A stretch of 64,000 bases of DNA from contig CAWFOU010000007.1 of the NCBI GenBank assembly GCA_963817525.1, positions 928,001 to 992,000 of the forward strand, given 5' to 3'. This DNA comes from an uncultured archaeon. GTDB lineage: Archaea > Thermoproteota > Nitrososphaeria > Nitrososphaerales > Gagatemarchaeaceae. The position numbers and the translations under genes are program-made. Of this stretch, positions 14,163-50,658 are shown piece by piece (position 1 is the stretch's first letter; every line of letters starts with the position of its first letter). Under the pieces are notes generated by a model. The model did not search any database. It saw nothing but the letters and a program-made list of their open reading frames with translations, and was not told where the DNA came from.

Positions 14163-14492
14163 CTACGGCTCGAGTCCCTTCTCGTCGATGCTGAAAATCT
14201 CGGCTAGCTCGTTGTAGGACCGCATGAACTTCTTTCCCTTGTCCGTGGTCTTATAGAACGTCCTCTTTGGGTCCAGCGGGTCCTGCATAACCTCGATGAG
14301 ACCGCGGCTCACCACGAAGTCAAGATACTGCTGCACCTGTTTGGAGTTCAGGTTGCACTTGTACATTACGTGCGTCTTCAAAGTCTCCTGGTCGCATACC
14401 GTGAGAACGAGGTCGATTATCTCCAGCCAACCCCTGTTTCCCCAGCCAAGGACGCTCCTGCTCCCCATCTCTCTGGGGTTCTGTTCCATCAT
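14163..14492 (-). CDS. Small winged-helix regulator (HTH_45-like), copy A
   Basis: NRGWLEIIDLVL...KTHVMYKCNLNSKQVQQYLDFVVSRGLI...YKTTDKGKKF. Confidence 0.85.
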   Translation of the reverse strand: MMEQNPREMGSRSVLGWGNRGWLEIIDLVLTVCDQETLKTHVMYKCNLNSKQVQQYLDFVVSRGLIEVMQDPLDPKRTFYKTTDKGKKFMRSYNELAEIFSIDEKGLEP

Positions 14493-14494
14493 TC

Positions 14495-15202
14495 CTACCT
14501 TTTATTCCACACATGTTCGACCATTCCCTCCGGCTCCGGAACCCGAGCCGCAGAACGTGCCGCCTCTGAGACCTTCATCAACCTGAATTGCTTGTCCAGG
14601 CACAGCTTCACGACCTCGAAACTCTCGACGTAGTTGATGTGGGAGTTCAGCCTGCTCTGGAGCGCCCGGTACTCGGCGAGCCCCTTGATCGCGTTCGCCT
14701 TGAGGTATAGCTTCGCGTTCTGCGACCAGAATATCTCTATCAGCTCTACCTTCTCGTTGATCACGTCGGTGATGTCGTAGAACACCTGGGGCTCGAATTG
14801 CACGGTGAGCGGTATCTCGTAGGTTAGGATGTTGGAGGAGTTCCTTGCCGCCTCGAGAGTGGCCGTCCCGATGGCCCGGTGGTCATGGTGGACGTCCTTC
14901 TTCGAATGGGTGAAGATGACGTCGGGGTCCGCGAAGTTGACGTATGCCTCGATGCTGTTGATCAGCTCGGGACCCGGAGTGAGCTTCGTGTCCTCGTAGT
15001 CGTCGATCTTGAGGTCCTTGGCCCCGATGAACTTGGCAGATCTTTTGAGCTCCTCCGTCCTCTCGGTTGGTTTGCCGGACATGCCGCCCCTCGTCAGCGT
15101 GTACATGAACACGTTGTGGCCCTCTCTGGCGGCTTTGATGAGGGTCCCGCCGCATCCCAGCTCGATGTCGTCAGGATGGGCCCCTATCGCAAGGATGTTC
15201 AT
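14495..15202 (-). CDS. PIG-L/LmbE-family N-acetylhexosamine deacetylase
   Basis: AHPDDIELGCGGT and DVHHDH metal-binding motifs. Confidence 0.92.
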   Translation of the reverse strand: MNILAIGAHPDDIELGCGGTLIKAAREGHNVFMYTLTRGGMSGKPTERTEELKRSAKFIGAKDLKIDDYEDTKLTPGPELINSIEAYVNFADPDVIFTHSKKDVHHDHRAIGTATLEAARNSSNILTYEIPLTVQFEPQVFYDITDVINEKVELIEIFWSQNAKLYLKANAIKGLAEYRALQSRLNSHINYVESFEVVKLCLDKQFRLMKVSEAARSAARVPEPEGMVEHVWNKR

Positions 15203-15287
15203 CGAAAGTGGACTCCACGTTGTCTTATATTGCTGGTGGAATATTGTTAGCTAGGATTGGTGTAATCCGGCCGCCGCGTCCTGGCTC

Positions 15288-15992
15288 TCAAGCCCTCACG
15301 AGAGGCGTCCGGGTCCCCGCGTCGGGCGTCTTCATGCAGTCGGGTCCCAAGTTCGAGAGCATGTCGATTATCGACAGGTCAGGGACGAAGTCCGCAGTAA
15401 AGCGCTGCCTATAGGGAAGCGGCCGATAGTTCTGGTATACGACACTCAGGCCGTTCTTCGAGAAGGAGGCCTCATCCAGGTAGTTCTTCCCACCGCTGCC
15501 AGAGATGTACGTGTCGGCGCCCACGGCCTTGCAGGCGCTGATCAGCCTGTGCGTCGCCTTCCCGGTCACCTTCAGTTCTGACTCTCTCAGCATGGGGATC
15601 TTGATGCCCAACCAGTTCGCCGTCGCCTTTACGAGCTCGAAATCAAGGTCGAAGAGGAATTCCCAGTCCCTGCTGTAGACGGACCGGAGATAATCATCGT
15701 AGAGGTGGAAGAACGGGGCGTTGCAGTAGGAGGTCCGAATCTTCTTGAGGTGCTCAGGGCGCCAGTCGATCGAGTTGTTGATTCGCACGAGCTTGTTCGG
15801 CTGAAACTTGTCGTCCTTGACGATGGGCACGGAGATCCAGATGGGCCCCTGGGGGACGAGTATCCGATTCCTGTTGGTGAAGCGCTTGTCGTATTGGACG
15901 TCATCCATTATGACGAAGACGTCGGCCATGCTCAGCTTGTGAAAGAAACCCGGGTAGGGCAGGTACGCCGGCTGGTGGATTGCGACCCTCAT
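15288..15992 (-). CDS. wbqC: WbqC-family protein
   Basis: AIHQPAYLPYPGFFHK, DDVQY..FTNRNRI, YISGSGGKNYL, LSIIDML. Confidence 0.92.
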   Translation of the reverse strand: MRVAIHQPAYLPYPGFFHKLSMADVFVIMDDVQYDKRFTNRNRILVPQGPIWISVPIVKDDKFQPNKLVRINNSIDWRPEHLKKIRTSYCNAPFFHLYDDYLRSVYSRDWEFLFDLDFELVKATANWLGIKIPMLRESELKVTGKATHRLISACKAVGADTYISGSGGKNYLDEASFSKNGLSVVYQNYRPLPYRQRFTADFVPDLSIIDMLSNLGPDCMKTPDAGTRTPLVRA

Positions 15993-16019
15993 CTTTCTTC
16001 ACAAAGCCCAGTTTTCGCC

Positions 16020-16964
16020 CTAGACGGTCGCCGGCGGTGGGACAATCTCGAGGCCGAGATCCGTCCCGAGCAGCCCAGTGATCTCAGAAGCTCTCTTTCT
16101 GAGCGTTATCGTGGTGATCCCTGCAGCGAACGCTATCCTGATCTGCGTCGTGTACTGGGATGTCTGGCTCGCCGCCAGGTAGAGCGCCGCGGCTGCGATG
16201 GAGATCGGCCTCTTCCCCGCTAGGAGCGAGTCGTACTTTACCTGCTCCAAGATCTGGATGGCCCGCCTTTCTGTTATCCCACCAAGGCCGGCGCGGCTTG
16301 CTATCCTGGACACCTCGGATGCCGGGTCGAGGGAAGGCATGCGGAGACCCGCGCCCTTCATGAGGACCTTCGAATAGTGCCTGATGCTCTTCCTCTCGTG
16401 GAGGTCAGCTGTGTGCTCGATCTCCTCTGCCGACCGCGGGACGCCGCCCTCCTTGCACGCGAGATATACGGCAGCCTCGGCCAAGCCCACGATTGATCTT
16501 CGTCTGCCGCTTCCTTCCTCGATTCCCTTGCGGTAGATCTCGTAGGCCCTTTCGACGACACCCTTCCCGGCGGCTAACGAACCGCCGATGCGCTGGATCT
16601 CGCTGGCCGCCTTGGTCAGGTTCCTTCGGTTGGAGTCGCTCGCTATGGTCATGTTGTTCAACCGCCTGAGCCGGTTCATGTCTCCAACATCGACGATGTG
16701 CTTCCCTCTCGCGTCGAAGTCGCGGCTGTCTATCCTCGCCGGCAGCGAGACGTAGTACATCATGCTCGAATCCTCGTCCCCGCTCATGGAGCCCGACCTC
16801 TCTGAGCGCGAGCCGTAGGCCGCCGAAAAGGCAAGATCGTCGCTCCTGCTCACGGCCCCGCATGCTCCACAAACCTGCTCCCCCGTTTCGAAGTCTAAAA
16901 CCAAAACGGCCCTGCACTCTCCGCACTGCCCACTCTGCTTCCCTACCGTAGCGCTTACTTGCAC
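16020..16964 (-). CDS. tfb: Divergent transcription initiation factor IIB paralogue
   Basis: Zn ribbon CGEC...GEQVCGACG, two cyclin repeats (AAVYLACK, GKRPISIAAAALYLA), TQIRIAFAAGITTITLRKR; likely start GTG at 16964 rather than 17102. Confidence 0.88.
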   Translation of the reverse strand: MQVSATVGKQSGQCGECRAVLVLDFETGEQVCGACGAVSRSDDLAFSAAYGSRSERSGSMSGDEDSSMMYYVSLPARIDSRDFDARGKHIVDVGDMNRLRRLNNMTIASDSNRRNLTKAASEIQRIGGSLAAGKGVVERAYEIYRKGIEEGSGRRRSIVGLAEAAVYLACKEGGVPRSAEEIEHTADLHERKSIRHYSKVLMKGAGLRMPSLDPASEVSRIASRAGLGGITERRAIQILEQVKYDSLLAGKRPISIAAAALYLAASQTSQYTTQIRIAFAAGITTITLRKRASEITGLLGTDLGLEIVPPPATV

Positions 16965-17181
16965 AGAATATCCTGCCGCGCCCCTTCCATAAAAGGAGCC
17001 GGGCACACATCTCGATAGGATTTCAGAGTTACAATGCACCTGAACAGGGCTCTGGAGGCCCCTGTGCCGAGAAGAGAAGGCGCCGCACTTTCGACCCCGC
17101 AAAAGCCGACGGGCACAAACAGTTCACTAGAACATAGTCGCATTCCGCTAATATAGAGAAGTGACGGTAAAGTCTTCTAGA

Positions 17182-17487
17182 ATGAAATACAGGAGCAGGA
17201 CCGACATAATCGCGGTGATTTTGCAAGCCTCGGCGAACGGGGCGACAAAGACTAGGTTGATGTATGGCGCGTATCTGTCATACGCCCAAATCAAGGAATA
17301 CTTAGAGTACCTGACAGAGAGGCAAATGATCGCATTCGAGGCTGGGACGCGCGCCTACACGCTCACCGACCTAGGCCTCCGCTTCTTGAAGGCATACCAC
17401 GAAATAAGTGAGATAAGCGGGACGGTCTCTCTCAAGAGCGCCGAGAGTCCAGGTCTGGCCTTGCCTGCGGCCCCCGGCCAACCCTAG
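17182..17487 (+). CDS. Small winged-helix regulator (HTH_45-like), copy B, divergent from tfb
   Basis: MKYRSRTDIIAVIL...ATKTRLMYGAYLSYAQIKEYL; TAATATA about 30 bp upstream. Confidence 0.87.
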   Translation: MKYRSRTDIIAVILQASANGATKTRLMYGAYLSYAQIKEYLEYLTERQMIAFEAGTRAYTLTDLGLRFLKAYHEISEISGTVSLKSAESPGLALPAAPGQP

Positions 17488-17535
17488 CGCGAGGGGGTCG
17501 TCCGTCCGGCGGTCACCGCATCGACGTTCAAAGGC

Positions 17536-18288
17536 CTAGGGCTCGTGGTTGGGGACGGAGACCAAGGGGTTGGGGTATGCGAGGGCCGCAAGAGCGCTCG
17601 CGACAGCGGCCAGATAGGGTGGAAGAGAACCGTAGGGGTTTGGCAGCCCTGCGTCGGTGATGTAGATGTAGCCGACGTGCGGGGACACCAGGGACGGATA
17701 CGACTGGTCGACGCTCTGCACGCCGTAGGCTATTACGGCAAAGTTGGCCTTTGCGTATCGAGAATGCCAGTCTTCTAGACGGGTCATGCTCGGGAGGCCT
17801 TGGTTCTCGTAGATCACAATGGTGTCGACCGTCCCGATGTAGCTGGGCAGGGTGCTAGACCCGGGGTTGCCCACCGTGAAGTCGAGCCCGAGCGACCTTG
17901 AATATGCGCTCAGCTTCGAATAATAGCGCTCTTTGCCCGGGACGTTGGACATCTCGTCGAAGAAGATCCCGGTGATCGGGTACCAGCTCTTGTATTGGTT
18001 TACCATCGACTCGATTGTCGAGATGGGCTTCGACGCGTAACCCGTCGGGACGTAGCCGATGACCGTCACGCCTGCCGCTTGAAGGCCCAGGATGCCCGAG
18101 ACGTAGTTCGGGTCCAACCTCGACCCTGGTCCGCTATCCGGGTTGATTATGGCTACAATGGGGACGCCAGGATTCGCCTCCTTCACGGAGGTCACGCTGG
18201 CCCAGGTGGTTCCCGGATACGTGTAGAGGGGTATCATGATTCCTGTCGTGGAGGCCGAGGCCGAGGAGGGGGCTGATGCTGGGCGCAA
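17536..18288 (-). CDS. Spherulation-specific family 4 (spherulin-4/Sph3, GH135-like) glycoside hydrolase
   Basis: IPLYTYP, AIINPDSGPG, VIGYVPTGY, GIFFDE, VGNPG, IVIYE, YIYITD..LPNPY.SLP.Y. Confidence 0.9.
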   Translation of the reverse strand: MRPASAPSSASASTTGIMIPLYTYPGTTWASVTSVKEANPGVPIVAIINPDSGPGSRLDPNYVSGILGLQAAGVTVIGYVPTGYASKPISTIESMVNQYKSWYPITGIFFDEMSNVPGKERYYSKLSAYSRSLGLDFTVGNPGSSTLPSYIGTVDTIVIYENQGLPSMTRLEDWHSRYAKANFAVIAYGVQSVDQSYPSLVSPHVGYIYITDAGLPNPYGSLPPYLAAVASALAALAYPNPLVSVPNHEP

Positions 18289-18460
18289 CGGAATGTGAAG
18301 CCTAGCATGAAGATTAAGGGGTTAGCAAGGATGTTACGATATATTCTTCCGAAGGCTTGTGCAGAAATTTGAATACAGAGTCATCTTCTAGTGGACGGTC
18401 GCTCGGAGAGGCGCTCCGCCCACGTAAGGCAGATAAGCCGAGCATAGGGAGCGCAACCCT

Positions 18461-19522
18461 ATGGGAGAGAAGGCGACCGTCCTCGTCACCGCTGCGGGCG
18501 GTATAATCGGAGAGGGGATCATCAAGTCCCTGCGCCTCGCCAACTCGAAGCGCGGGCCCGTCTCCTACAAGATCCTCGCGGCTGACGCCGACCCTCGGGC
18601 GGCCGGTCTTTACAGGGCTGACGAGGGCTTCCTGGTACCGGGGGCCTCCTCCCCGGACTATATCGATCGCCTCGTCAAGCTGGCGAAAGCCAACGGGGTG
18701 GACGCGATTTTCGTTGGGGCGGACGAGGAGCTGGCGCCCGTGGCGTCGGTGTCGGGCCGCATCGCGAAGGAGAGCGGGGCGGTGCCCATCTCGAATCAGG
18801 CGGAGACAATCGCCATCGGCTCGGACAAGTGGAGGACATACGAGTTCATGAAGCGGAACGGACTGCCGTGCGCGGAGTCAGCCAAGCCTGAAGACAAAGA
18901 GCGTTTCGTCAAAGAGTTCCACTATCCCGTCGTCGTGAAGCCCAGGGAAGGGCACGGGTCGGAGCACTTCTACTTGGCCGGAGGGAGGGACGAGCTGGAC
19001 CAGGCCGTCGTAGCGATTCGTGCAAAGGGGTGGCACCCGATGCTGCAAGAGCACTTGGCCGATGGAGACAATGAGTTCACCACGGGAGTGACCGTGAGCA
19101 GGGGCACCCAGGTCATGTCTTCGATCGCCATGAAGAGGACCCTGAAGGGCGGCCAGACATACAAGGCGTTCATCGACGACTTCCCCGACGTCCGTAGCGC
19201 TGCGGAGGAGGTCGCCCTCCGGCTGGGTGGGTCGGGGCCAATCAACGTCCAGGCTAGGATGGACAAAGACGAACCAAAGGCCTTCGAGATAAACCCCCGC
19301 CTCTCCGCCTCCTGCCCCCTTCGCGCCGTCGCAGGGGTGAACGAGCCCGACATCCTCTATCGCAACTTTGTCCTCGGCGAGGCGATTCGGAGGGAGGGCT
19401 ACGAAAAGCTGGTCTGCCTGAGGTACTGGAACGAGGTCTACGTGCCATACGTCGACTACGAGCGGGCGCGAAAGACCGGGAAGGTTCGGACCTCGGGCTC
19501 GTGGATACCCGGCTATTTCTAG
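18461..19522 (+). CDS. ATP-grasp amide ligase (CPS-like, polysaccharide-locus type)
   Basis: VLVTAAGG, DKWRTY, PVVVKPREGHGS, QEHL, INVQ, FEINPRLS. Confidence 0.88.
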   Translation: MGEKATVLVTAAGGIIGEGIIKSLRLANSKRGPVSYKILAADADPRAAGLYRADEGFLVPGASSPDYIDRLVKLAKANGVDAIFVGADEELAPVASVSGRIAKESGAVPISNQAETIAIGSDKWRTYEFMKRNGLPCAESAKPEDKERFVKEFHYPVVVKPREGHGSEHFYLAGGRDELDQAVVAIRAKGWHPMLQEHLADGDNEFTTGVTVSRGTQVMSSIAMKRTLKGGQTYKAFIDDFPDVRSAAEEVALRLGGSGPINVQARMDKDEPKAFEINPRLSASCPLRAVAGVNEPDILYRNFVLGEAIRREGYEKLVCLRYWNEVYVPYVDYERARKTGKVRTSGSWIPGYF

Positions 19523-19595
19523 TACTTTCCGAGTGATGATTCTTCTAGTAGACAGACGTGAATTCAGATAAGGGGTGACGTATACATAACGATGA

Positions 19596-21155
19596 ATGAA
19601 GAAGTCCCTTGTACTTCTCGCTGCGGCGGTGGCGATTGGTCTGTTGCTCGTGGTCGCATTCTTCGCGACGCCCTACTTCGGGAATACCGCCGCGCCTCGC
19701 TCGACGGTCCTGAGCCTGAAACAGTCAGGGGTCGAAAGCTACGACCCTGAGAACAACACGAACCTGCAATCGAGCAGCTTTTCCGGGGACGCAGGAAACG
19801 GGAGCTACACAGTCTTCGACGTCGCCTCCTATCTTCACATAGGCGTCAAGGCCCCCTCCAACGGTTCTTGGGCTGGCTACTACCAAGTGACGCCCAGCAC
19901 GTATGCCTCCCTGGTGCAAGCCACTCTGGTTGCCCCCGCTGGGAACCTGACGGGCTATTTCACGAACGGCATCTATGTCCAGGCTTCTAATCAGGTGCTG
20001 AATTATGTGACCTGCGTGTCCGTGACCAACTCCACTGGTACGTTCTGGATGGTCGTGCACGCGAGCAAGAACGGAGACTCGGCTTCTAATCCCACCACCT
20101 ACGACACCCTCTGGCACGACCCGTCCGAACACCAGTCGCCTATCCGCGACTGTGAGATCATCACGAACGGCCAGAACGCGCTGGAGGTCTACCTTGACCA
20201 CAACATTGTGTACCAAAGCAACTCGCTCTCGCTTGGGATACAACAGCCCTTCAATTTCTTCGTCGGGGTCGAGTCTGAGTACGCGCAACAGCTGACATAT
20301 GGGTCGTCGAGCGACTTTTACGTGACCAACGGCGACGCCGTGAATGTGACCGGCCTCCCCAGCAGCGCGGCCTTCGCGGAGATCGTGGACAGCCACGGGT
20401 ACGTCCTCGCTAGCGCCCCGGTGGCGTCCGGTAAGGCATCGATCAACCTCGGCGGGAGTTCGTTCCCGCTCGTGGGCTACATCGAGGTCTTCGACAAGGC
20501 CCCAACGGCAATCAACGACAGCTCAGGCGAGTTGGCGTCGACTGCGAGCGAGGTGAGCATCTTCGGCGGAGACGTATATGCGCTAGGGCCGAACCCCTCG
20601 ACGACCTCGCAGCTCACGGTCAATCCTGAGGACACGAACGGCAACGAGCTCAATGGCTACTACACCGTACTCATGAAGAACGGTGTGCAGGTGGCCGCGG
20701 GCTACAGCCCGACGAGCTTCACCCTCGAGACCGGTCAGACCTATACGGTGGAGATCTCAGACTATGGCAGCTACGTCTTCGACCACTGGAGCACCGGCTC
20801 GGCTTCGAGGATCATGCAAATATCGATCTCCGGCGACACGTCGATTAACGCGATATTCAGGGAAGCGAAGAGCCCTCCGCCGAGCGGGCAATCTTTGATC
20901 TACGTGAGCGCGGTCAACTCAACTGGCGGCGCCATAACCGGGATCTACAGCACCCTGTGGCAGAACGGGTTCATGGTAGCCCAGGCTTACTCTCCCACCT
21001 CGTTCGTGGTGAACAACGACGCCACGTATCAGGTCACGATGTCGAACTTCGGGTCAAACACGTTCGTCAATTGGCAGGGCGGGTCCAATGACACGTTCGA
21101 CTCGGTCACCACGGGGACTGGCACGTCGACCTACCTGGTAGCTGTCTACAAGTAA
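19596..21155 (+). CDS. Secreted/anchored surface protein with two C-terminal ~85-aa beta-sandwich repeats
   Basis: N-terminal signal/TM; many N-x-S/T sequons; repeats with G(Y/I)Y..L..NG...YSPTSF...YxV.(D/N)(Y/F)GS..F..W. Confidence 0.75.
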   Translation: MKKSLVLLAAAVAIGLLLVVAFFATPYFGNTAAPRSTVLSLKQSGVESYDPENNTNLQSSSFSGDAGNGSYTVFDVASYLHIGVKAPSNGSWAGYYQVTPSTYASLVQATLVAPAGNLTGYFTNGIYVQASNQVLNYVTCVSVTNSTGTFWMVVHASKNGDSASNPTTYDTLWHDPSEHQSPIRDCEIITNGQNALEVYLDHNIVYQSNSLSLGIQQPFNFFVGVESEYAQQLTYGSSSDFYVTNGDAVNVTGLPSSAAFAEIVDSHGYVLASAPVASGKASINLGGSSFPLVGYIEVFDKAPTAINDSSGELASTASEVSIFGGDVYALGPNPSTTSQLTVNPEDTNGNELNGYYTVLMKNGVQVAAGYSPTSFTLETGQTYTVEISDYGSYVFDHWSTGSASRIMQISISGDTSINAIFREAKSPPPSGQSLIYVSAVNSTGGAITGIYSTLWQNGFMVAQAYSPTSFVVNNDATYQVTMSNFGSNTFVNWQGGSNDTFDSVTTGTGTSTYLVAVYK

Positions 21156-21668
21156 GAGCCACTGGCCTTGGCAAGGGGCCAGGTGGATAATAGGGTAAAT
21201 GAAGCGCTGGAGAGCGCCTAGGCCCTACTCCACTCCATGACGGAGAGCGCCAACGACGAGCGGGCGAAGCGGGCTCCCGGGCTCGCGAAATCGCTTGACG
21301 GGCAATTCGGGGACGCGGTAAGGATGTTCGCATAGACGCTGATGACCAGAGACCGGGGGACCAGGGGCGACCGGCTAGCCCTCCTCCGATCCTACAAGAC
21401 GCCCGTCGAGGCCCCGGGGGCCTATATCGTGGGCAAAGCAAAGTACCTAGCAGCCAAGCAGCCGTGGACCCTCTGGCAGGAAGCGGTCGCACGCGCTCGG
21501 TTCGTGGAGATGAGCGCAATCTTTCATGCGTCCAGCGTGCCCGTTTCCGTCGGAGACCATGGCGGCTACAAGCAATCGTGGTTGCGAGCGCCTCGACTCG
21601 GCAGTGCGTCCGAAAGAGATCCCTCCTCGGTTAAGCCAAGTCCTTCGCCGCCTCGTGGGGCGGCGCAA

Positions 21669-23327
21669 TCACATGAACCGCGCGAAGAATATGCTTGCGG
21701 CCCGACCGATGTTCGCCCCCACGTAGATGGTCGAGAGCGCGGCGACCGTTGCCGTTGCCAGCAGGTAGGCCATCTCTATGTTCTGGAAACCCGTGTGGGC
21801 GAGCACGAGCCCTCCAACGAGCACGACGAGCGCCCCCACCATCGCGATTATCGCCAGTCCCATCATCCTGTTCATGAACAACATGAAGACGCCGTTGGCG
21901 AAGAACACCACGAGCAATACGTTCGCGAAGGAGGCGATGTGAAGGATCTGGAGGCTCGTGGGGTTCAGCGCCGTCGCGGGCAGGAGCCTCGGCGCCAGCA
22001 AGTCCAAGGCCGCGGCCACCGCGACGGCCGAGGCCACAGAGGCGACCATCACCATCCTGTATCGCGAGAGCAGAAAGGGCTGAATCTTGTCAGCCTCAGA
22101 GACGGAGTACTCCAAGGTGGCGTTGCTCACCTGGGCAAAGACGGGGCTCATCATCGCGTACTGGATGATCAACGCGGGGAAGATCACCAGGAGCGCCGGA
22201 TCTGCCCCCAGGTGATAGACGGTGTTAAAGACGAAGGGCAGAGCTACACCGTCAGCCGTCTTTATGGGGTTGAAGAACCAAGAGAGGACCCTGTCACCGA
22301 ATATCAGGACGAAGAAGAAAGCCCCGTAGAGGTAGTTGGGCAGCGTCTCCCACAGCTGGACTGAGAACCTTGATCTTATGGTGCTCTTGTTGGTCGTGCT
22401 ATGCCTGAAGAACGAGGGTGCGCCGCTCTCGAGCCGGAACGAGTCTCCCTTCAAGAGCTTGAGCTGGTCGTAGAAGGCGAACGACGAGAGGATAGCAAGG
22501 GCTGCGAAGAGCGCATAGAAGTAGCGGGTGACGTCGTTCGGTATCAGGGCGCCCATCTCGAAGTAAACGAGAATCAGGGCTGAGAAGGCGAGCGAATACG
22601 AGACCACGAGTTGCACCATCTTCCTGAGCGTGTAGATGATGGCGTAGATCACCCTCTGCAGGGAGACCCCGATGAGGCTTATCATCCCGATCTCGAACAG
22701 GCCGATGGGGAAGCTCGTCAGCACCGCGAGGGCGTATAGCCCCCCCACGGTCACCGCGAGGACGGCCCCCACCACGAGATAGGCCCTCTTCAAGACTCGC
22801 CTCGCCTCCGCCAGGTTGCCTTGGTTGTGATAGAAGGCGAAGAACCTGTTGAAGCCTTGCAGAGGCCCTTCCGTGATGAAAATACCCGCAAACAGGCCTG
22901 CCATGAAGACTGTCGTGACCTTCAACGGGAGGAGGAGAGACAGCCACAGCGACACTCCGGCGATGAAGAGCAACAGGAGCGCCCCGACCCATCCGAACGA
23001 TAGCGCCAAGCCCTCCCCGATCCGCCTGGCGGTCGTGGGAAGCTTCACGTAGGACTCGTGGGAGCTGGGGTGGGCCTCCTCGCCGCCGTCGAGGATGTCG
23101 ACGAACTCGTAGATCTCTCGAGAGACTTCGTTGAGGTCGTCGAACCCGTTCCGTTGCGCGTCCTGCTTCGTGTATCCGAGGACCTCGAGGAAGACCATCA
23201 CGTCGGCGACGTTGTTCACCCTGGGTTGCAGTTCGGCGATCGACCTCGCCGCCTTCATGACGAACGCCCTGGACTCTACCGACCCCGAGCTCGCCTCCGG
23301 AGATGACTCCTCCAGCCCCATGGGCAA
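21669..23327 (-). CDS. PelG-like polysaccharide exporter (Wzx/MATE-like, about 12 TM)
   Basis: Multi-TM topology; YGAFFFVLIFGDRVLSWF resembles the PelG G.F....W.DK...W segment; last gene of the PelF-epimerase operon. Confidence 0.65.
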   Translation of the reverse strand: MPMGLEESSPEASSGSVESRAFVMKAARSIAELQPRVNNVADVMVFLEVLGYTKQDAQRNGFDDLNEVSREIYEFVDILDGGEEAHPSSHESYVKLPTTARRIGEGLALSFGWVGALLLLFIAGVSLWLSLLLPLKVTTVFMAGLFAGIFITEGPLQGFNRFFAFYHNQGNLAEARRVLKRAYLVVGAVLAVTVGGLYALAVLTSFPIGLFEIGMISLIGVSLQRVIYAIIYTLRKMVQLVVSYSLAFSALILVYFEMGALIPNDVTRYFYALFAALAILSSFAFYDQLKLLKGDSFRLESGAPSFFRHSTTNKSTIRSRFSVQLWETLPNYLYGAFFFVLIFGDRVLSWFFNPIKTADGVALPFVFNTVYHLGADPALLVIFPALIIQYAMMSPVFAQVSNATLEYSVSEADKIQPFLLSRYRMVMVASVASAVAVAAALDLLAPRLLPATALNPTSLQILHIASFANVLLVVFFANGVFMLFMNRMMGLAIIAMVGALVVLVGGLVLAHTGFQNIEMAYLLATATVAALSTIYVGANIGRAASIFFARFM

Positions 23328-23328
23328 A

Positions 23329-24306
23329 CTACCGTCTCTGCCCTTGCTGGATTTGGAGCTCGAGCCTGGACGCCATGTAGCGCATCAGCTCGTCCAGCCC
23401 TTGCTCCATGGAGACGCTCCTCCTGTAGCGCAGGACGGACTCGATCTTCTCTATCGAGGACATCCCGAACCGCACATCTCCCGGCCTGGATGGAGCGAAC
23501 GTATGTGGTAGCTCCCGGGCGTGGGCTATCGTCTTTAGGATCTCCAGCAACTCCAGTATGCTCGTGGACCGCCCCGAGGCCACGTTGAAGACCTGGCCCA
23601 CCGCCGCGTCGTCCTCCATGGCCAGCATGTTCGCTTGCACGATGTCTCTCACGTTCACGAAGTCGCGCACCTGTCTCCCGTCGCCGTACACCGTGACGGG
23701 CTCTCGACGGAGTATGGCGTTGACGAAGAGCGTTATCACGCCGCTGTAGTCGCTCATGGCCTGCCTAGGCCCGTAGACGTTGAAGTATCTCAGCATCACG
23801 CCCTCGAGACCATACGTCTGGCGGTATGCGTGAACGTAGTTCTCGACGCACATCTTCGACGCCCCGTAGGGAGAGGACGGGTAGCAGAGGAGGTCTTCCT
23901 TCGCTTTCACGTCTCCCACCGCCCCGTAGACTGCGGCCGACGAGGCGAAGACGAACCTCCTGATCTTCTTCGCGAGGCAGAAGTTCATCATCTGGAGGCT
24001 CATGTTCACGTTCGCATCGTGGACGACCATCGGCTCTTTGACCGACCGCAGGACGTTCGCGATCGCCGCTTCATGGAAGAGGACGTCAATGTGGTGAACC
24101 CCGGCCAGTAGCTGGTCAATCTTTCTCCCGTCCCCGACGACGACGTGCAGGAGGTCGCTTCCCTCGTGCTGGCTCAGGTTCTCGAGCTTCCCCGTGCTGA
24201 GGTCGTCGACCACGTATGTCTCCACCCTTCTCCGGATCAGCTCGTCGACGATGTGGCTCCCTATGAACCCGGCCCCTCCCGTAACCACAGCTCTGGAGGC
24301 CTTCAT
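23329..24306 (-). CDS. NAD-dependent UDP-HexNAc 4-epimerase (PelX/WbpP-like)
   Basis: True start ATG 24306 (ATGA overlap with pelF stop); VTGGAGFIGSH, SSAAVYG, PYGASK, RYFNVYGPRQ...YSGVI. Confidence 0.88.
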   Translation of the reverse strand: MKASRAVVTGGAGFIGSHIVDELIRRRVETYVVDDLSTGKLENLSQHEGSDLLHVVVGDGRKIDQLLAGVHHIDVLFHEAAIANVLRSVKEPMVVHDANVNMSLQMMNFCLAKKIRRFVFASSAAVYGAVGDVKAKEDLLCYPSSPYGASKMCVENYVHAYRQTYGLEGVMLRYFNVYGPRQAMSDYSGVITLFVNAILRREPVTVYGDGRQVRDFVNVRDIVQANMLAMEDDAAVGQVFNVASGRSTSILELLEILKTIAHARELPHTFAPSRPGDVRFGMSSIEKIESVLRYRRSVSMEQGLDELMRYMASRLELQIQQGQRR

Positions 24307-25793
24307 CGAGTGACCACCAGTTCGCTGTCGGGCCGAGCGGTGAGGACTGCGCCGGGCGCGAGCAGCTCTTCGTACAACCTCCGGTAGAGGTCGGTCGAAG
24401 TGGAGAGCTCGAAATTGTCCCTCGCCTTCTTCATAGCGGCCTCCCCCAGGCGCTTCCTTAGGGGCACGTCCTTGAGGAGCGTCACGATAGCCCTGCCCAA
24501 CTCCGTGGAGTTCCTGCTCCGCACCAGGATGCCGCATCCCTCGACGGCCTCCCTCGTCCCCCCCACGTCCGTGGCGACGACGGGCTTGCCGCATGCCATC
24601 GCCTCGATGGCCGCGAACGGGAACGCCTCGGTGATGCTGCTCATGGCGACAACGTCGCCGGTGTTGTACGCCTTCTCGGGCTCGTTCGTCCTGCCCATGA
24701 ACTGGACGTTGCCCTCGAGCTTCAGGTCCTTGACGGTCTTCACGCACTTCTTTGAATACTCAAGGTCGAAAGACTCGCCGTAGATCAAGCACATGACGTC
24801 CGGGATCTCCTTCCTGACGCCGTCCATCGCCGTGATCAGATTGACCAGGTCCTTGAAGATCTCGATCCTCCCCACGTAGACGACCACCGGGCGCGTGGTC
24901 TTCCTTGGCACCGCGATCGGCCTGAAGCGCTTCGTGTCAATCCCGTTGTAGATCACCCTGATCTTCTTCGCCGGGACTCCGAGGCGTAGCTCCCACTCGG
25001 TGTTGGCGTTACAGACAGGCGCCACGATGTCGGCCACCGAGTAAACCGTCTTCACGATGTTCATCGCGACCACCTTCATCATCACCTTCGATGCCTCGTC
25101 GTATGTGTACCCGTTGTAGTAGAGCAGCAACTCCCTGAACGCCACTCCGTGCTCCGTCACTATCACAGGGCATCCGCTCTCGGCCTTTGCGACGATCGCG
25201 ACCAGAGAGGGCGTCCACGCTAGGGCGCAGTGGACGAGGTCTACCTTGGGCAGGTCAACGGAGAGGGTCTGCATCACCCGCTGCAGCATCTGGTAGGCGA
25301 GGAGGGCCTCGTTGAGGCTCATCTCCCTATAGACCTGGTCCTCCCGGAGGATCCTCAGGAATCCCTCCCAGGCAGCCGGGCTCTCCACGCACTTCTTGTA
25401 GTCGAAGGTCCTGAAGAGCCTGTGAAGCTCAAGAATCGACTCTGAGACCTCCGAGGGCTGACATTCAGAAGAGATTATCCTTGAGACGAAGCGGAGGAAG
25501 CGCGGGATGAACTGCTCTTCGACCGCCGCCTGCGACGTAACGAGCACCCGCCCCAGAAAAGGCCTGTCGGAGAACTCCTCGTACCTGCTGGCCCCGAAGA
25601 GAGGCAGCGAGATCACTTTCGTGACGTTCTTCGGGACTCTGAAGGCTCCGTTGGAGTTCGAGTTGGAGAGCTGGTTGTATACCACGAACTCCCAGTCGGT
25701 TAGCTTTTCGATGAGGGCCTTCTCCCATGTGAAGACGCCGCCCGTGGCGATGTTGGGATATCCGTCCCAGCTAACTAACAATACTTTTTTCAA
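24303..25793 (-). CDS. pelF: GT4 glycosyltransferase, PelF-like (DUF3492 + GT-B)
   Basis: DGYPNIATGGVFTW (PelF EGTYP..GGV..W), VTEHGVAFRE, VIYNGID, GRIEIFKDL, SITEAFPFAAIEAMACG, TDVGG. Confidence 0.85.
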   Translation of the reverse strand: MKKVLLVSWDGYPNIATGGVFTWEKALIEKLTDWEFVVYNQLSNSNSNGAFRVPKNVTKVISLPLFGASRYEEFSDRPFLGRVLVTSQAAVEEQFIPRFLRFVSRIISSECQPSEVSESILELHRLFRTFDYKKCVESPAAWEGFLRILREDQVYREMSLNEALLAYQMLQRVMQTLSVDLPKVDLVHCALAWTPSLVAIVAKAESGCPVIVTEHGVAFRELLLYYNGYTYDEASKVMMKVVAMNIVKTVYSVADIVAPVCNANTEWELRLGVPAKKIRVIYNGIDTKRFRPIAVPRKTTRPVVVYVGRIEIFKDLVNLITAMDGVRKEIPDVMCLIYGESFDLEYSKKCVKTVKDLKLEGNVQFMGRTNEPEKAYNTGDVVAMSSITEAFPFAAIEAMACGKPVVATDVGGTREAVEGCGILVRSRNSTELGRAIVTLLKDVPLRKRLGEAAMKKARDNFELSTSTDLYRRLYEELLAPGAVLTARPDSELVVTR

Positions 25794-26439
25794 CTGAAGG
25801 CCTCTTTCGCGTCCCGGCAGCCGATGTCGAGGAGACCGGCGCCTCCGGCTTGGACCCCCGCGCGTCCCTTAGACGGAGGAACCCCTCTATCGCGCCGTTT
25901 ACATCGGAAGTCTGAGGCAGCGCGAGACGGAAGGAGACAGCCCTTACCGCCGTGCTGCGCCTGATCCTGAGCACTCTGTCCAAAGTCTCGCTGGTGGCGA
26001 ACGGGCTCGACTTCCTCGCTAGAGAGGCGCACTTGTCGTAGATCTGAGTGGCCCTCTGGGCGTCGCCACCTACTATGAAGTAGTCGTGGGCCTCCTGCAT
26101 CAACCACAGCGCCTCCCGTATGGATTTCCCGAAGACCGCCTCGGCCTGCTCTTCGTACATCCTGGCCGTCTCGAAGTAGAGGTTGCGTGCCGCGTTATAG
26201 TTCCCCGTCTTCTCCAAACAGCTTGCAGCACAGGAGCAGCTCAGGGCGGCCCTGACATGGAGCCCCTTGCTCAGGCAGCCGGCGGCGTCGCGAAGATAGA
26301 GGACCGTCGCCTCCGCGAACCGCCCGTCCTCCTCCATCCCAGTCGCGGTGAGCCACAGGTTTGACGCGTCTGTGAGCTTGTCCTTCCATGTAGTAGCTTG
26401 CACGGCTTCCTGGAGCGCCGGGGAAGCCTTAAGGGCCAA
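25771..26439 (-). CDS. Alpha-helical TPR/SNAP-like protein, first gene of the pelF operon
   Basis: Ala-rich helical repeats (AASCLEKTGNYNAARNLYFETARMYE); 23-bp overlap with pelF. Confidence 0.6.
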   Translation of the reverse strand: MALKASPALQEAVQATTWKDKLTDASNLWLTATGMEEDGRFAEATVLYLRDAAGCLSKGLHVRAALSCSCAASCLEKTGNYNAARNLYFETARMYEEQAEAVFGKSIREALWLMQEAHDYFIVGGDAQRATQIYDKCASLARKSSPFATSETLDRVLRIRRSTAVRAVSFRLALPQTSDVNGAIEGFLRLRDARGSKPEAPVSSTSAAGTRKRPSVEKSIVS

Positions 26440-26543
26440 TCAAGTTTCTACAAGAGAAATCGTCTGGTGGATTCCTACTATCAGATTCCTACATGTCAAG
26501 GTTGCCTCAGCGACTAATGCACCGGGGAGTAACTATCCTCAGT

Positions 26544-28301
26544 TTGTGTTCTATTATCGGCTATATCGGGTCGATGGACGGCGCCCCGCTGCTGGTCAAG
26601 GCTCTGGAAAGGATGGAATACCGTGGATATGACAGCGCTGGCGTCGCGATGCTATCCGACGGCAGCATCCTCATGAAGAAGGGGGTCGGAAGGGTCGAGC
26701 AAGTCAACTCCTCCCAGATGCTCGAGCTTCTCCCGGGCAAGGTCGGGATAGGGCATACCAGGTGGGCCACGCACGGTGGCGTGACCGAGGTCAACGCGCA
26801 TCCTCACCTCTCCTGGTCCGGGAAGATAGCCATAGTGCACAACGGGATCATAGAGAACTACGAGGAGCTCAAGGCCGAGGTGGGACAGCGCGGCTACCTC
26901 TTCAGATCCGAGACCGACAGCGAAGTCATCGCGAACCTCTTGCAGTGCAACCGCGACCTCGGGATGACCGTCGACGAGGCGGTCATCGAGACTCTTAGAG
27001 AGCTGAAGGGTAAGTACGCCTTTGTCGCGCTCATGGACGATGGGACGCTCGTCGGAGCGAGGAGCCAAGCCCCCTTGATCCTCGGCATCGGGAAGAACGG
27101 CGCGTTCGTGTCAAGCGACATAATCGGGTTCGTCCAGGAGGCGGACGACGTAATCTATTTGGACAATGGCCAGTTCGTGTCGATCGACCACGAGAGGATC
27201 CGGATATCCGACTTCAGCGGCGCTCCGGTCGCGCAACGCGTGGTCAAGGTCTCGAAGGAGTTGGCGGACGCGGAGAAGGGGATCTACGTCCACTATACGT
27301 TGAAGGAGATAAACGACCAGCCCGATGTCCTCGCCAACGCCGGAGGACACTCCAGGGCGGAGCTCGATGTCCTCGCGGGGATGATCAAGCAAGCCGAGGT
27401 CGTCTACATAACCGGAAGCGGCAGCAGCTACAATGCGGCGCTATTTGGGAAGTATCTGTTTTCGCAGCACGCTGGCATAAGGGTCGAACCAATCATCTCG
27501 AGCGAGGCGCAGTTCTCCCCCATGTACCTCGACAATCGCTCTCTCTTGCTCGCCATCTCCCAGAGCGGCGAGAGCGCGGACGTGCTCGAGGCCGCCGCGA
27601 TAGCAAAGGAGCACGGCGCGATGGTCGCCTCGATAGTGAACGTGCCGACGTCCTCTCTGGCGCGCCTCTCCTCGATCTCCGTGAGCCTCAACTGCGGCCC
27701 AGAGGTCGGGGTCGCCGCGACGAAGAGCTTCACGTCCCAGCTCGCGGTGCTCTATGCGCTGAACGATATGCTGTGCGGTGGAAGCGATTATGACCTGCAA
27801 AGTGCTCCCTCCGCGATGTCAGAAATCCTCTCCGACACCCAGTCTATTCGCGAACTTGCGAAAGAACTCCAGGACATCACCGACCTGTATGTCCTCGGCG
27901 ACGGCGCCCACTACCTCATAGCTTGCGAGGCGGCCCTCAAGCTCAAGGAGCTCGCGTACGTCCATGCCGAGGCGATGCCCAGCGGCGAGCTGAAGCACGG
28001 CCCTCTTGCCCTCCTCGACTCCACATCGTACGTGCTGGTCTTCAACCCCTACGACTCTACATACTCGAACACGCTCGCATCCGCCCACGAGGCCAAGGCG
28101 CGCGGGGTCAAGGTGATAGGCGTCTCCGACAGGCCGAACGAGATCTACGACCACTGGATCAGGATCCCATACGTCGAGGAGCAGCTCTTCCCGATCGTGG
28201 AGATAGTCCCCATCCAGCTTCTGGCATACCACATGGCCGTGCAGCGGAAGGCCAACCCTGACTATCCAAGGAACCTCGCTAAATCTGTGACCGTAAAGTA
28301 G
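26544..28301 (+). CDS. glmS: Glutamine-fructose-6-phosphate aminotransferase
   Basis: TTG start at 26544 gives (M)CSIIG with catalytic Cys1; EYRGYDSAG, GHTRWATHG, SQSGES, ELKHGP, PRNLAKSVTVK. Confidence 0.96.
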   Translation: MCSIIGYIGSMDGAPLLVKALERMEYRGYDSAGVAMLSDGSILMKKGVGRVEQVNSSQMLELLPGKVGIGHTRWATHGGVTEVNAHPHLSWSGKIAIVHNGIIENYEELKAEVGQRGYLFRSETDSEVIANLLQCNRDLGMTVDEAVIETLRELKGKYAFVALMDDGTLVGARSQAPLILGIGKNGAFVSSDIIGFVQEADDVIYLDNGQFVSIDHERIRISDFSGAPVAQRVVKVSKELADAEKGIYVHYTLKEINDQPDVLANAGGHSRAELDVLAGMIKQAEVVYITGSGSSYNAALFGKYLFSQHAGIRVEPIISSEAQFSPMYLDNRSLLLAISQSGESADVLEAAAIAKEHGAMVASIVNVPTSSLARLSSISVSLNCGPEVGVAATKSFTSQLAVLYALNDMLCGGSDYDLQSAPSAMSEILSDTQSIRELAKELQDITDLYVLGDGAHYLIACEAALKLKELAYVHAEAMPSGELKHGPLALLDSTSYVLVFNPYDSTYSNTLASAHEAKARGVKVIGVSDRPNEIYDHWIRIPYVEEQLFPIVEIVPIQLLAYHMAVQRKANPDYPRNLAKSVTVK

Positions 28302-28598: not shown

Positions 28599-28862
28599 GC
28601 AAGAACGGGGCGCCAATCCTTCAGGCGCAACTCCTGTGGACCGAATTCTTTGTCATGACCGTTGTGCCCGACCATAGTAACACAACGTTGAACCTTATCC
28701 CGATAGTATGAAGCGGACGGCCAAGGCGCCGGCATTCGAGACCCCGGCCCAAATTGTCATCTCGAGGCGAGGCGGGTACCCCGGAAGCCAAAAACTTTGG
28801 CGGTTCCTGCGGAGGTCAGCCAGGATGGGAGGGCAAAAAAGTGGTCCCAGGCTCTAGGGCTT

Positions 28863-30648: not shown

Positions 30649-30927
30649 ATGAAATATCGGAGCAGATTGGCGATCGCCTCGACGATACTCCAGGTCGCTA
30701 GAGCGGGGAACGCTACGAAGACAAGGCTGATGTACGGCTCTTTCCTGTCCTTCGCCCAGATCAACGAGTACCTGAACTTCCTGCTGGCCAACACGCTGAT
30801 CACCAGGTCCGAAGAGACACACATCTACGGGCTCACGGAGAAAGGCATGCGTTTCTTGCGCATTTACGACGAAATGGCTGAGCTCATACCGGTCGAAGAG
30901 AAGGTTCCGATGGTCGTCGCAAAGTGA
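30649..30927 (+). CDS. Small winged-helix regulator (HTH_45-like), copy C
   Basis: MKYRSRLAIASTIL...ATKTRLMYGSFLSFAQINEYL...LTEKGMRFL. Confidence 0.87.
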   Translation: MKYRSRLAIASTILQVARAGNATKTRLMYGSFLSFAQINEYLNFLLANTLITRSEETHIYGLTEKGMRFLRIYDEMAELIPVEEKVPMVVAK

Positions 30928-50226: not shown

Positions 50227-50658
50227 TTGCCGAAGGAGTCTGAGGAGAGACTCGCAAAGATGATAGCGAAAGTGTCGTTATTCTCGAATCTGTCTCAAAA
50301 GCAGCTCAAGAGCATCGCGAAAAGCGGAACCGAACGGGGTTTTGATTCGGGTCACGTGATAATCAAGGAAGGGGAGAAAGGAGTTGGCTTTTACCTGATA
50401 CTTGACGGAAAGGTGGAGGTGCGTAAGAAAGGGAAAATCCTTTCGACACTTTCGGCCGGCGAGTTCTTCGGGGAGATGGGGCTGATAGATGACCAGCCAA
50501 GGTCGGCCGATGTTGTGGCCGTCTCGTCCACGACGACCTTCTGTCTAAGCCCGTGGTCTTTCGCTGGTGCCGTTACGGGGAACCCTGAAATCGCACTGAA
50601 GATGATGAGGGTTCTCATCAATAGGCTGAGAACCAGTAGCAAGGCACTAACCGAATAA
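50227..50658 (+). CDS. Stand-alone cyclic nucleotide-binding protein
   Basis: IKEGEKG..FYLILDGKV, phosphate-binding cassette FGEMGLIDDQPRSADV; no HTH. Confidence 0.92.
   Translation: MPKESEERLAKMIAKVSLFSNLSQKQLKSIAKSGTERGFDSGHVIIKEGEKGVGFYLILDGKVEVRKKGKILSTLSAGEFFGEMGLIDDQPRSADVVAVSSTTTFCLSPWSFAGAVTGNPEIALKMMRVLINRLRTSSKALTE

Follow-up and report, generated by a model that had tools for sequence, protein, structure and literature searches.

A 64,000-nt stretch of DNA from an uncultured archaeon (Thermoproteota; Nitrososphaeria; Nitrososphaerales; Gagatemarchaeaceae; assembly GCA_963817525.1, contig CAWFOU010000007.1, positions 928,001-992,000, forward strand), here called the window, was analyzed. 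Between positions 14163 and 28301, 13 plausible genes were recognized from open reading frames (ORFs) and from Pfam and NCBIfam matches. Four of these genes, encoding a TPR-like protein, a PelF-type glycosyltransferase, a PelX-like epimerase and a PelG-like membrane protein, form an operon. The region is probably a conserved locus of Nitrososphaerota for a synthase-dependent exopolysaccharide similar to bacterial Pel and fungal galactosaminogalactan (GAG), made without the cyclic di-GMP (c-di-GMP) receptor PelD. Every gene named in an original prediction for this region was recovered in place by the ORF, Pfam and NCBIfam scans. The 13 genes are as follows.

14163-14492, minus strand: Sso10a-family winged helix-turn-helix (wHTH) protein (HTH_45, 4.9e-16; NF053610, 66.1 bits, cut-off 60)
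14495-15202, minus strand: PIG-L/LmbE-family de-N-acetylase (PIG-L, 9.5e-26)
15288-15992, minus strand: WbqC-family protein (WbqC, 1.6e-67)
16020-17102, minus strand: TFB paralogue with Zn ribbon and two cyclin repeats (TFIIB, 4.2e-25)
17161-17487, plus strand: Sso10a-family wHTH protein, between the TFB and GH135 genes (HTH_45, 2.4e-19; NF053610, 75.3 bits, cut-off 60)
17536-18288, minus strand: GH135/spherulin-4 catalytic domain, 250 aa (Spherulin4, 8e-42)
18461-19522, plus strand: ATP-grasp ligase, PRK12767 type (NF009402, 311.5 bits, cut-off 218)
19596-21155, plus strand: 519-aa protein with hydrophobic N-terminus and C-terminal repeats (no Pfam or NCBIfam family)
21669-23327, minus strand: PelG-like membrane protein, 552 aa (MOP-fold model; family PelG matches)
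23329-24306, minus strand: PelX-like UDP-N-acetylhexosamine C4-epimerase of the extended short-chain dehydrogenase/reductase (SDR) type, 325 aa (Epimerase, 1.1e-61; the listed ORF extends to 24747)
24303-25793, minus strand: PelF-type GT4 glycosyltransferase, 496 aa (DUF3492, 3.9e-29; Glycos_transf_1, 5.5e-35; NF038011, 128.9 bits, cut-off 100)
25771-26439, minus strand: SNAP/TPR-like soluble protein, 222 aa as listed ORF (SNAP, 5.4e-07, 29.8 bits, cut-off 25)
26493-28301, plus strand: glmS, glutamine-fructose-6-phosphate transaminase (TIGR01135, 622.9 bits, cut-off 418)

The core operon and its products

The core genes run head to tail on the minus strand in the order TPR-like, PelF, epimerase and PelG-like, with glmS divergent from them. 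The TFB, WbqC, PIG-L and wHTH genes form a block in one direction beyond the end of the operon opposite glmS. As read from the sequence, the four core genes constitute a translationally coupled operon: the 3' end of the TPR gene overlaps the TTG start of PelF by 23 nt, an ATGA is common to the PelF stop and the epimerase start, and only 1-7 nt separate the epimerase stop from the PelG-like start. The listed ORFs of TFB, TPR and glmS probably contain internal true starts. For TFB this start probably lies about 45 codons in, for the TPR protein at a GTG near 26403 (giving about 210 aa) and for glmS at a TTG near 26544 (giving Met-Cys). The TPR and glmS starts are placed by homologue alignment and by the Met-Cys N-terminus that GlmS needs and, if they hold, about 140 bp lie between the two genes.

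In the PelF protein, DUF3492 spans residues 3-274, ahead of the Glycos_transf_1 half, and the match to NF038011 runs from residue 11 to 474 and covers 9-489 of 489 model positions. Among the NCBIfam models, only the PelF cut-off is passed; scores against Agl16 and PglJ-type GT4 models are well below their cut-offs. The C-terminal half has the two glutamates of the EX7E motif of retaining GT4 enzymes: E389 and E397 lie eight positions from each other and do not vary among 31 archaeal sequences. Annotation pipelines at NCBI and JGI already name thaumarchaeal orthologues 'GT4 family glycosyltransferase PelF', and a 54%-identical copy is present in a 1.8-Mb Nitrosotalea genome.

The best structural matches of the epimerase in the PDB are 6dnt (3e-60) and 6wjb/6wj9 (3.4e-60, full length). 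Entries 6WJ9, 6WJA and 6WJB are PelX (Marmont et al. 2020, 10.1101/2020.05.26.111013), in which S121, Y146 and K150 form the catalytic motif and A81, A122 and G189 differ from WbpP (10.1101/2020.05.26.111013). When the archaeal protein was aligned with 6wjb (residues 1-309), all six residues were identical, and the extended-SDR S-x24-Y-x3-K pattern of PelX is present. By these comparisons the epimerase is PelX-like and as close to PelX as to any solved protein.

The 552-aa membrane protein has 93 database relatives that form one family, and the organism names, where present, are Thaumarchaeota or Nitrososphaerales. The Pfam PelG model (PF16933) is precomputed on 12 of the 93, and 23 of 36 aligned family members match it at E<=0.01 (best 7e-09). 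An AlphaFold2 model built on the family alignment (pLDDT 79.8, pTM 0.76) gave 38 Foldseek matches in the PDB at E<=0.001; all of those listed are MATE, MurJ or Wzx proteins, with MATE, MurJ and WzxE at the top (3vvo, E 1.9e-06, TM-scores 0.57/0.67). At its N-terminus the protein has about 95 additional residues, a four-helix soluble domain that the Pfam PelG model does not cover. By profile and predicted fold, the protein is a divergent member of the PelG family with a MOP fold. The expectations of a DUF3492-bearing glycosyltransferase, a PelX-like epimerase and a membrane protein of the PelG/MATE kind were supported.

PelE combines transmembrane helices with a TPR-like domain; no hydrophobic segment was seen in the sequence of the 222-aa TPR protein, and it matched no NCBIfam family. 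Its matches in the Atlas were confined to its own Nitrososphaerota clusters and generic TPR/SNAP clusters. A small-residue helix of this protein carries an invariant ALSCSCAA-type motif with three conserved cysteines (C68, C70 and C74, window numbering), which may serve in packing, metal binding or redox chemistry.

An exhaustive search for PelF relatives returned 406 cluster representatives at E<=1e-30. The four best are archaeal-type proteins at 44-55% identity, and from rank 5 on the full-length matches have identities of 27-39%. Thirty of the best 150 representatives are at least 900 aa long. In Pfam scans of 30 of the best 150, the long forms begin with DUF3492-GT1, and some 700-aa proteins carry HEAT repeats. 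A hidden Markov model (HMM) of the archaeal PelG family matched the C-terminal halves of eight of the best 150 (P0241, P0282, P0238, P0252, P0267, P0304, P0329 and P0268; 922-1221 aa; E 3.9e-16 to 1.5e-04 within the set of 150). In six of these (not in P0282 or P0329) the match starts at model position 21 or 38 and so covers the N-terminal soluble domain; P0231 is a ninth candidate (hhalign probability 65.5). The long relatives of P0241 include PelF-HEAT and PelF-TPR fusions (P0364-P0384 and others), with source names reading 'PelF' from Actinobacteria, Acidimicrobiales, Firmicutes and Paenibacillus. These two kinds of fusion argue that PelF, the N-terminal domain of PelG and a helical-repeat partner function in contact.

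A FastTree phylogeny of PelF was built from 84 of the best 150 representatives and 31 archaeal sequences; the other 66 lacked one near-full-length PelF stretch and were dropped, and many rows deviated in composition. All archaeal rows fell in one clade of 33 (support 100), with P0219 and P0222 as the nearest outside rows (support 78), followed by P0218 and four others (support 97). The nearest Atlas cluster of P0218 is an Actinomycetota PelF. Because of the reduced row set and the deviant composition, a sister relationship of archaeal PelF to actinobacterial-type PelF is a lead only.

Recurrence of the neighborhood across Nitrososphaerota

A profile-guided scan with one genome per species yielded 36 loci, 15 of which have full 10-kb flanks. 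Presence of a gene was scored by tblastn (E<=1e-5, at least 40% of the query covered). The neighborhood was found in all 36 species-level genomes at 31-91% protein identity, and 34 of the loci are labeled Nitrososphaerota: Nitrosotalea (8), Nitrosopumilales (7) plus Nitrosotenuis (2), Nitrososphaerales (10) and Nitrosomirales (1), the rest unclassified. The other two are labeled 'uncultured archaeon' and, for a 7.5-kb contig of a metagenome-assembled genome (MAG), 'bacterium' (L020). Locus L020 holds PelF, PelG-like, GH135, epimerase and glmS genes at 43-62% identity in rearranged order and is probably an archaeal contig binned into a bacterial MAG. The counts for each gene are given below, first among the 36 loci and then among the 15 with full flanks.

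PelG-like: 36/36; 15/15
PelF: 33/36; 15/15
Epimerase: 33/36; 15/15
TPR: 31/36; 15/15
ATP-grasp: 31/36; 15/15
GH135: 24/36; 11/15
TFB within 10 kb: 20/36; 15/15 (31-85% identity)
glmS, divergent partner: 20/36; 10/15
PIG-L: 18/36; 14/15
WbqC: 15/36; 12/15
wHTH at 17161-17487: 19/36; 14/15
wHTH at 14163-14492: 20/36; 14/15

The 36-locus counts are lowered because many loci end at contig ends. A complete core of four genes is found in 31 of the 36 loci, and nine genes (the core, ATP-grasp, GH135, TFB, WbqC and PIG-L) occur together in 10 of the 15 with full flanks. Synteny spans Nitrosotaleales, Nitrosopumilales, Nitrososphaerales and Nitrosomirales. In most loci PIG-L and WbqC lie downstream of TFB, and in others (L009, L016, L019, L025 and L031) they lie directly upstream of TPR. 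Their position shifts yet they stay within 10 kb, so that proximity survives rearrangement. Recurrence in 36 loci indicates that the neighborhood is more than a chance arrangement, and the predicted co-occurrence of these genes in relatives was confirmed across the phylum.

Accessory enzymes, regulators and other genes

The GH135 domain, of the (beta/alpha)8 type, aligned with the Sph3 structures 5d6t and 5c5g (1.9e-13), including its GIFFDE stretch, which holds the conserved acidic pair; the third catalytic glutamate is outside the aligned stretch. Orthologues beside the ATP-grasp gene mostly carry an N-terminal hydrophobic signal or anchor, and many relatives add Thr-rich linkers together with FN3-like and beta-sandwich repeats. 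Because of these signals, anchors, linkers and repeats, the relatives are taken to be extracytoplasmic. The window copy is without their C-terminal linker and repeat extension, and locus L003 also has a short GH135 copy without a signal. Second GH135 paralogues of 264-280 aa with a signal peptide were seen at 14026-14868 in L002, at 13414-14217 in L003 and at about 1000-2400 in L004, L006, L008, L012, L015, L018 and L028. The glutamate of the FFDE stretch is replaced in them (FDN or LDQ), and they may be inactive binding proteins or use a different mechanism.

The 519-aa protein encoded between the ATP-grasp gene and the operon had been counted as a surface protein belonging to the cluster. 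By tblastn, relatives were found in just 2 of 36 loci and in 1 of the 15 with full flanks, and on this distribution the gene is a local insertion outside the conserved cluster. Judged by eye, its C-terminal repeats look like those fused to GH135 in relatives.

It had also been proposed that PIG-L stands in for the deacetylase activity of PelA. However, no signal peptide was found in any orthologue of PIG-L, WbqC or ATP-grasp, and PIG-L orthologues begin directly at the catalytic motif. The best matches of PIG-L are the small-molecule deacetylase BshB1 and archaeal diacetylchitobiose deacetylases; the best NCBIfam model is BshB1 (100.1 bits, below the cut-off of 182.5), and PDB entry 6p2t, a BshB1, matched at 2.4e-13. 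Since PIG-L is cytoplasmic and without a signal peptide, it cannot replace periplasmic PelA, and this part of the prediction is withdrawn. PIG-L and WbqC more likely swap N-acyl groups on a precursor. A bacillithiol or other low-molecular-weight-thiol pathway was considered and set aside, as the BshB1 score and the BshA score (103.4 against 273.7) are both below cut-off.

WbqC gave no PDB match by sequence. In an AlphaFold2 model built on 15 orthologues (pLDDT 83.7, pTM 0.81), the best fold match is BshC, which adds the cysteine in bacillithiol synthesis. The next matches are nucleotidyltransferase-type Rossmann proteins, and none reaches E<=0.001. In all four bacterial plasmids inspected, WbqC lies in amino-sugar or polysaccharide operons that hold DegT/RffA aminotransferases, glycosyltransferases and acyl- or methyltransferases. 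PIG-L is adjacent to WbqC in one of the four, directly downstream on Bacillus thuringiensis plasmid NZ_CP022346.1 (L039, 8001-9374), alongside two DegT aminotransferases, a dehydrogenase, an epimerase and GNATs, so the adjacency of the two genes is not confined to archaea. An amine-creating enzyme thus recurs beside WbqC, an aminotransferase in bacteria and PIG-L here, which fits WbqC acting on that amine. WbqC is a putative acylating enzyme that would act on a free sugar amine. The ATP-grasp ligase matches PDB entry 2pn1 (1e-18), and its gene is convergent on the PelG-like gene in relatives.

Against the general TFB model NF001658, the TFB paralogue scores 170.8 bits, far below the cut-off of 384, and by its sequence it is a divergent paralogue that travels with the cluster. 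A divergent TFB lies within 10 kb in every locus with full flanks, in keeping with the proposal that the system has its own TFB. The wHTH gene at 17161-17487 is divergent from TFB. No GGDEF, PelD/PelD_GGDEF, GAF or PilZ family was found in the 66 window ORFs, with no fold-level search made of all neighbors. This agrees with the predicted lack of a c-di-GMP receptor, with the caveat that HMMER misses Gram-positive PelD (Whitfield et al. 2020, PMC7112168) and that streptococcal PelD is without GGDEF altogether (PMC7112168). Transcriptional control through TFB and the wHTH proteins is plausible but inferred.

Several signaling genes recur in relatives and are not part of this window's cluster. 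A KaiC/GvpD-like ATPase (17 loci), a response regulator (16 loci) and a histidine kinase (10 loci) recur beside glmS, and a PP2A-type Ser/Thr phosphatase lies directly beside TFB (14 loci). Such neighbors were seen in ammonia-oxidizer lineages (L004, L006, L008, L010, L015, L018, L028 and other loci). At 28604-28708 on the plus strand, the window retains a 35-residue remnant of the C-terminus of the KaiC/GvpD-like ATPase (46-54% identity). The gene is intact beside glmS in L001-L003, and a 30%-identical paralogue lies at 4714-6147 on the minus strand of the window. The remnant, set beside the intact gene of relatives, suggests a deletion downstream of glmS in the window genome.

Elsewhere in the window, a third Sso10a/HTH_45 gene lies at 30649-30927 on the plus strand. 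An adenylate/guanylate cyclase fused to TPR repeats (48109-50055, minus strand) adjoins a small cyclic-nucleotide-binding protein (50227-50658, plus strand). The two resemble a cyclic-nucleotide signaling pair, and nothing evident ties them to the cluster. A GvpD/KaiC-like ATPase lies between two LPG_synthase_TM-type membrane proteins, one of which has a GtrA domain, and a two-domain KaiC gene is near; as a set these genes occupy 3091-4683 (minus), 4714-6147 (minus), 6510-7643 (minus) and 8734-10317 (plus). An ice-binding-like domain protein is encoded at 33592-35136 on the plus strand (6.8e-42), and an IS240-type DDE transposase at 62853-63731 on the minus strand. Scans of the 64-kb window for tRNAs and Rfam families gave no matches.

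Comparison with known systems and interpretation

Gram-positive Pel loci, with pelDEA(DA)FG, pelA(H) and galE in Bacillus cereus (PMC7112168), have in common with the archaeal locus the PelF GT4 with DUF3492, a PelG-family protein, a 4-epimerase and a separate hydrolase. Both are without outer-membrane parts and have a single membrane to cross (PMC7112168). Unlike the Gram-positive system, the archaeal locus is without PelD (GAF plus degenerate GGDEF; PMC7112168) and without a membrane-anchored PelE, with a soluble TPR/SNAP-like protein and the extra N-terminal domain of PelG in place. It is also without a CE4-type PelA deacetylase; its hydrolase is of family GH135 rather than GH166, and it adds TFB/wHTH regulators and the cytoplasmic PIG-L, WbqC and ATP-grasp proteins. 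PelF-dependent Pel of B. cereus binds a GalNAc (N-acetylgalactosamine) lectin (PMC7112168). With Pseudomonas pelABCDEFG (plus pelX), the archaeal locus has in common PelF, a PelG-like protein and a PelX-type, group-3-like epimerase that is identical at the aligned catalytic and substrate-contact positions, whereas PelA, PelB, PelC, PelD and PelE as well as c-di-GMP control are missing from it (10.1101/2020.05.26.111013; PMC12022489).

The fungal GAG cluster (uge3, gtb3, agd3, ega3 and sph3; PMC7229062; PMC11356417) has an epimerase and a Sph3-like GH135 in common with the archaeal locus. The archaeal synthase, however, is PelF plus PelG rather than Gtb3, and counterparts of Agd3 (CE18) and Ega3 (GH114) were not found. 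In uncharacterized actinobacterial operons, PelF is followed by a multi-span membrane protein with a Spherulin-4 gene near, as in the archaeal locus. Two plasmid operons of this kind have the following gene orders.

Streptomyces californicus: 715-aa protein, pelF, 468-aa multi-span protein, SDR, nucleotidyltransferase, SDR, Spherulin4, GH114
Kocuria rosea: 733-aa weakly Agd3-like protein, pelF, 430-aa multi-span protein, Spherulin4, GH114

The Kocuria 733-aa protein matches CBM87 (2.2e-05) and Agd3_CE (4.3e-03), both below cut-off. In contrast to these operons, the archaeal loci are without Agd3-like and GH114 genes, PelF identity is just 28%, and the regulators and the PIG-L/WbqC/ATP-grasp set differ. 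Bacterial Agd3 operons, accompanied by Spherulin-4 genes in Actinobacteria, were noted by Bamford et al. 2020 (PMC7229062), and the two plasmids confirm that clusters of PelF with spherulin-4 exist in Actinomycetota, as had been anticipated. In fungi, GH135 and GH114 act on alpha-1,4-GalNAc/galactosamine polymers (PMC7229062). That GH135 and GH114 are linked to PelF in bacteria, and GH135 also in archaea, provides the strongest indirect clue to the sugar, and by this analogy alpha-linked GalNAc is most likely abundant in the exopolysaccharide.

The reading of the locus as one for a Pel/GAG-like exopolysaccharide rests on the domain identities and folds shown above, on the coupling of the genes and on synteny that holds across four orders. 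In the proposed mechanism, GlmS would supply the hexosamine pool and the PelX-like epimerase would convert UDP-GlcNAc (UDP-N-acetylglucosamine) to UDP-GalNAc, which the PelF-type GT4 would polymerize at the inner membrane face. The PelG-like MOP-fold protein would then move the chain across the single membrane, with its N-terminal soluble domain and the TPR/SNAP-like protein docking PelF in replacement of PelD and PelE. In relatives, a secreted or anchored GH135 would trim or release the polymer. In the cytoplasm, PIG-L, WbqC and ATP-grasp may remove an N-acetyl group from a precursor hexosamine, a primer or the growing chain and then acylate the freed amine again. Control would be exerted by the dedicated TFB paralogue and the Sso10a-type winged-helix proteins rather than by c-di-GMP. 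What we infer in this scheme is which sugar is used and how it is linked, that the proteins form a physical complex, that N-acyl groups are edited and that TFB acts as a regulator.

Several observations weigh against this reading. The 552-aa protein itself reaches only E 0.076 against Pfam PelG (12.3 bits, cut-off 29), and the archaeal PelG-family HMM gave no match to the membrane proteins beside actinobacterial pelF. Sequence alone does not reveal the substrate and linkage of PelF, and every one of the 36 loci comes from a MAG contig. Of the 15 with full flanks, 4 have no GH135 gene within 10 kb and 5 have no glmS there. The fold match of WbqC to BshC (4wbd) is weak (E 2.3e-03, probability 0.99, query TM-score 0.40). 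No extracellular de-N-acetylase (CE4 or Agd3-like) or GH114 was found in the window or the 36 loci, by tblastn with the Kocuria Agd3-like protein and two GH114 proteins (E<=1e-3) and, for polysaccharide-deacetylase families, by Pfam scans of the window ORFs. A cationic, partly deacetylated product is therefore not supported, and the description of the locus as a near-complete pathway was overstated, since no GlmM or GlmU is encoded in the cluster either.

Also on this side is the GH135 gene of the window, whose ORF begins just past the signal-peptide region, so that the secretion signal is missing. A signal-like stretch can still be read at about 18289-18350 on the minus strand, but it is out of frame with the catalytic domain and is not preceded by an ATG, GTG or TTG. 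Either secretion has been disabled by pseudogenization or the assembly contains an indel. Having lost its secretion signal, this copy may be inactive or intracellular, and the idea that it is a functional, secreted stand-in for the PelA hydrolase is not supported for the window copy.

PIG-L, WbqC and perhaps ATP-grasp may instead form a second pathway that runs beside the core operon. In that case the operon would make the polymer, and the product of these enzymes would be a separate cytoplasmic compound, for instance a nucleotide sugar modified for use in S-layer or N-glycans, or a low-molecular-weight, thiol-like glycoside made along the lines of BshA/BshB/BshC. The cytoplasmic location of all three enzymes agrees with this explanation, as do the likeness of PIG-L to BshB1 and of the WbqC fold to BshC, the occurrence of WbqC in generic amino-sugar operons without PelF on the four bacterial plasmids, and its absence from 3 of the 15 full-flank loci. 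We nevertheless consider it unlikely: PIG-L is under the BshB1 cut-off and stays within 10 kb of the core in 14 of these 15 loci despite rearrangements, and ATP-grasp is directly beside the PelG-like gene in all 15.

Nitrososphaerota carry S-layers, and the operon might serve glycosylation of proteins or the S-layer, or a cell-wall-like glycan, with the MOP-fold protein flipping a lipid-linked oligosaccharide like Wzx and MurJ. The fold matches do include the lipid-linked-sugar flippases MurJ and WzxE, and PelF does score, well below cut-off, against Agl16 and PglJ-type GT4 models. This explanation is improbable: the glycosyltransferase has the DUF3492 half specific to PelF and exceeds no cut-off but that of PelF, scans of the window brought up no oligosaccharyltransferase or polyprenyl-phosphate transferase family, and a GH135 endo-hydrolase partner suits a polymer. 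N-glycosylation in particular was set aside on the first two of these grounds, the PelF-specific domain and the missing oligosaccharyltransferase. Most improbable is a purely catabolic GH135, secreted to digest fungal galactosaminogalactan as food and near the glycosyltransferase operon by chance; Sheridan et al. 2023 read signal-peptide-bearing Gagatemarchaeaceae GH135 genes as fungal-wall degradation, and some loci hold extra paralogues away from the core, but the synteny is biosynthetic, with GH135 beside the ATP-grasp and PelG-like genes in autotrophic ammonia-oxidizer lineages too, GH135 and GH114 embedded in biosynthetic clusters in fungi and Actinomycetota, and no uptake or galactosamine catabolic genes in the cluster.

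Within the literature searched, which left subscription journals and supplements outside, no paper was found that ties PelF, PelG or Pel to Thaumarchaeota, Nitrososphaer* or ammonia-oxidizing archaea; the few papers in which such terms appear together seemed unrelated, judged on title and the opening of the abstract. Polysaccharide and glycosyltransferase terms are absent from two Nitrosotalea genome papers, and the word 'archaea' occurs zero times in the accessible text of the Whitfield 2020, Bundalovic-Torma 2020 and Bamford 2020 surveys of Pel and GAG. Pel/GAG machinery has so far been described only in bacteria and fungi, while archaeal PelF is already auto-named in databases.

The reading of the locus as one for a Pel/GAG-like exopolysaccharide can be extended to a fuller proposal, which we advance tentatively and with more doubt than belief. 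Nitrososphaerota, including lineages labeled Nitrosotalea, Nitrosotenuis and Nitrososphaera, may build a Pel/GAG-type poly-GalNAc matrix whose amines are edited in the cell by PIG-L, followed by a BshC-like WbqC and/or ATP-grasp adding an acyl or aminoacyl group, and whose minimal PelF-TPR-PelG synthase is switched on by its own TFB paralogue. If true, a biofilm system regarded as restricted to bacteria and fungi would also exist in archaea, in a version that works without c-di-GMP and may be related to the actinobacterial one.

Few polymers of biofilm matrices have been studied as thoroughly as Pel and GAG. A naturally minimal Pel synthase that has neither PelD nor PelE would be of use for structural work, for which the PelF-PelG and PelF-repeat fusions point to the parts in contact, and the pairing of WbqC with PIG-L suggests a testable function for the uncharacterized WbqC family. 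The Gagatemarchaeaceae GH135 genes would be recast from fungal-wall digestion to probable parts of an endogenous biosynthetic locus. For these organisms, an archaeal version of the system would provide a genetic handle on aggregation and biofilm formation in the ammonia oxidizers of soil and fresh water and in their heterotrophic relatives.

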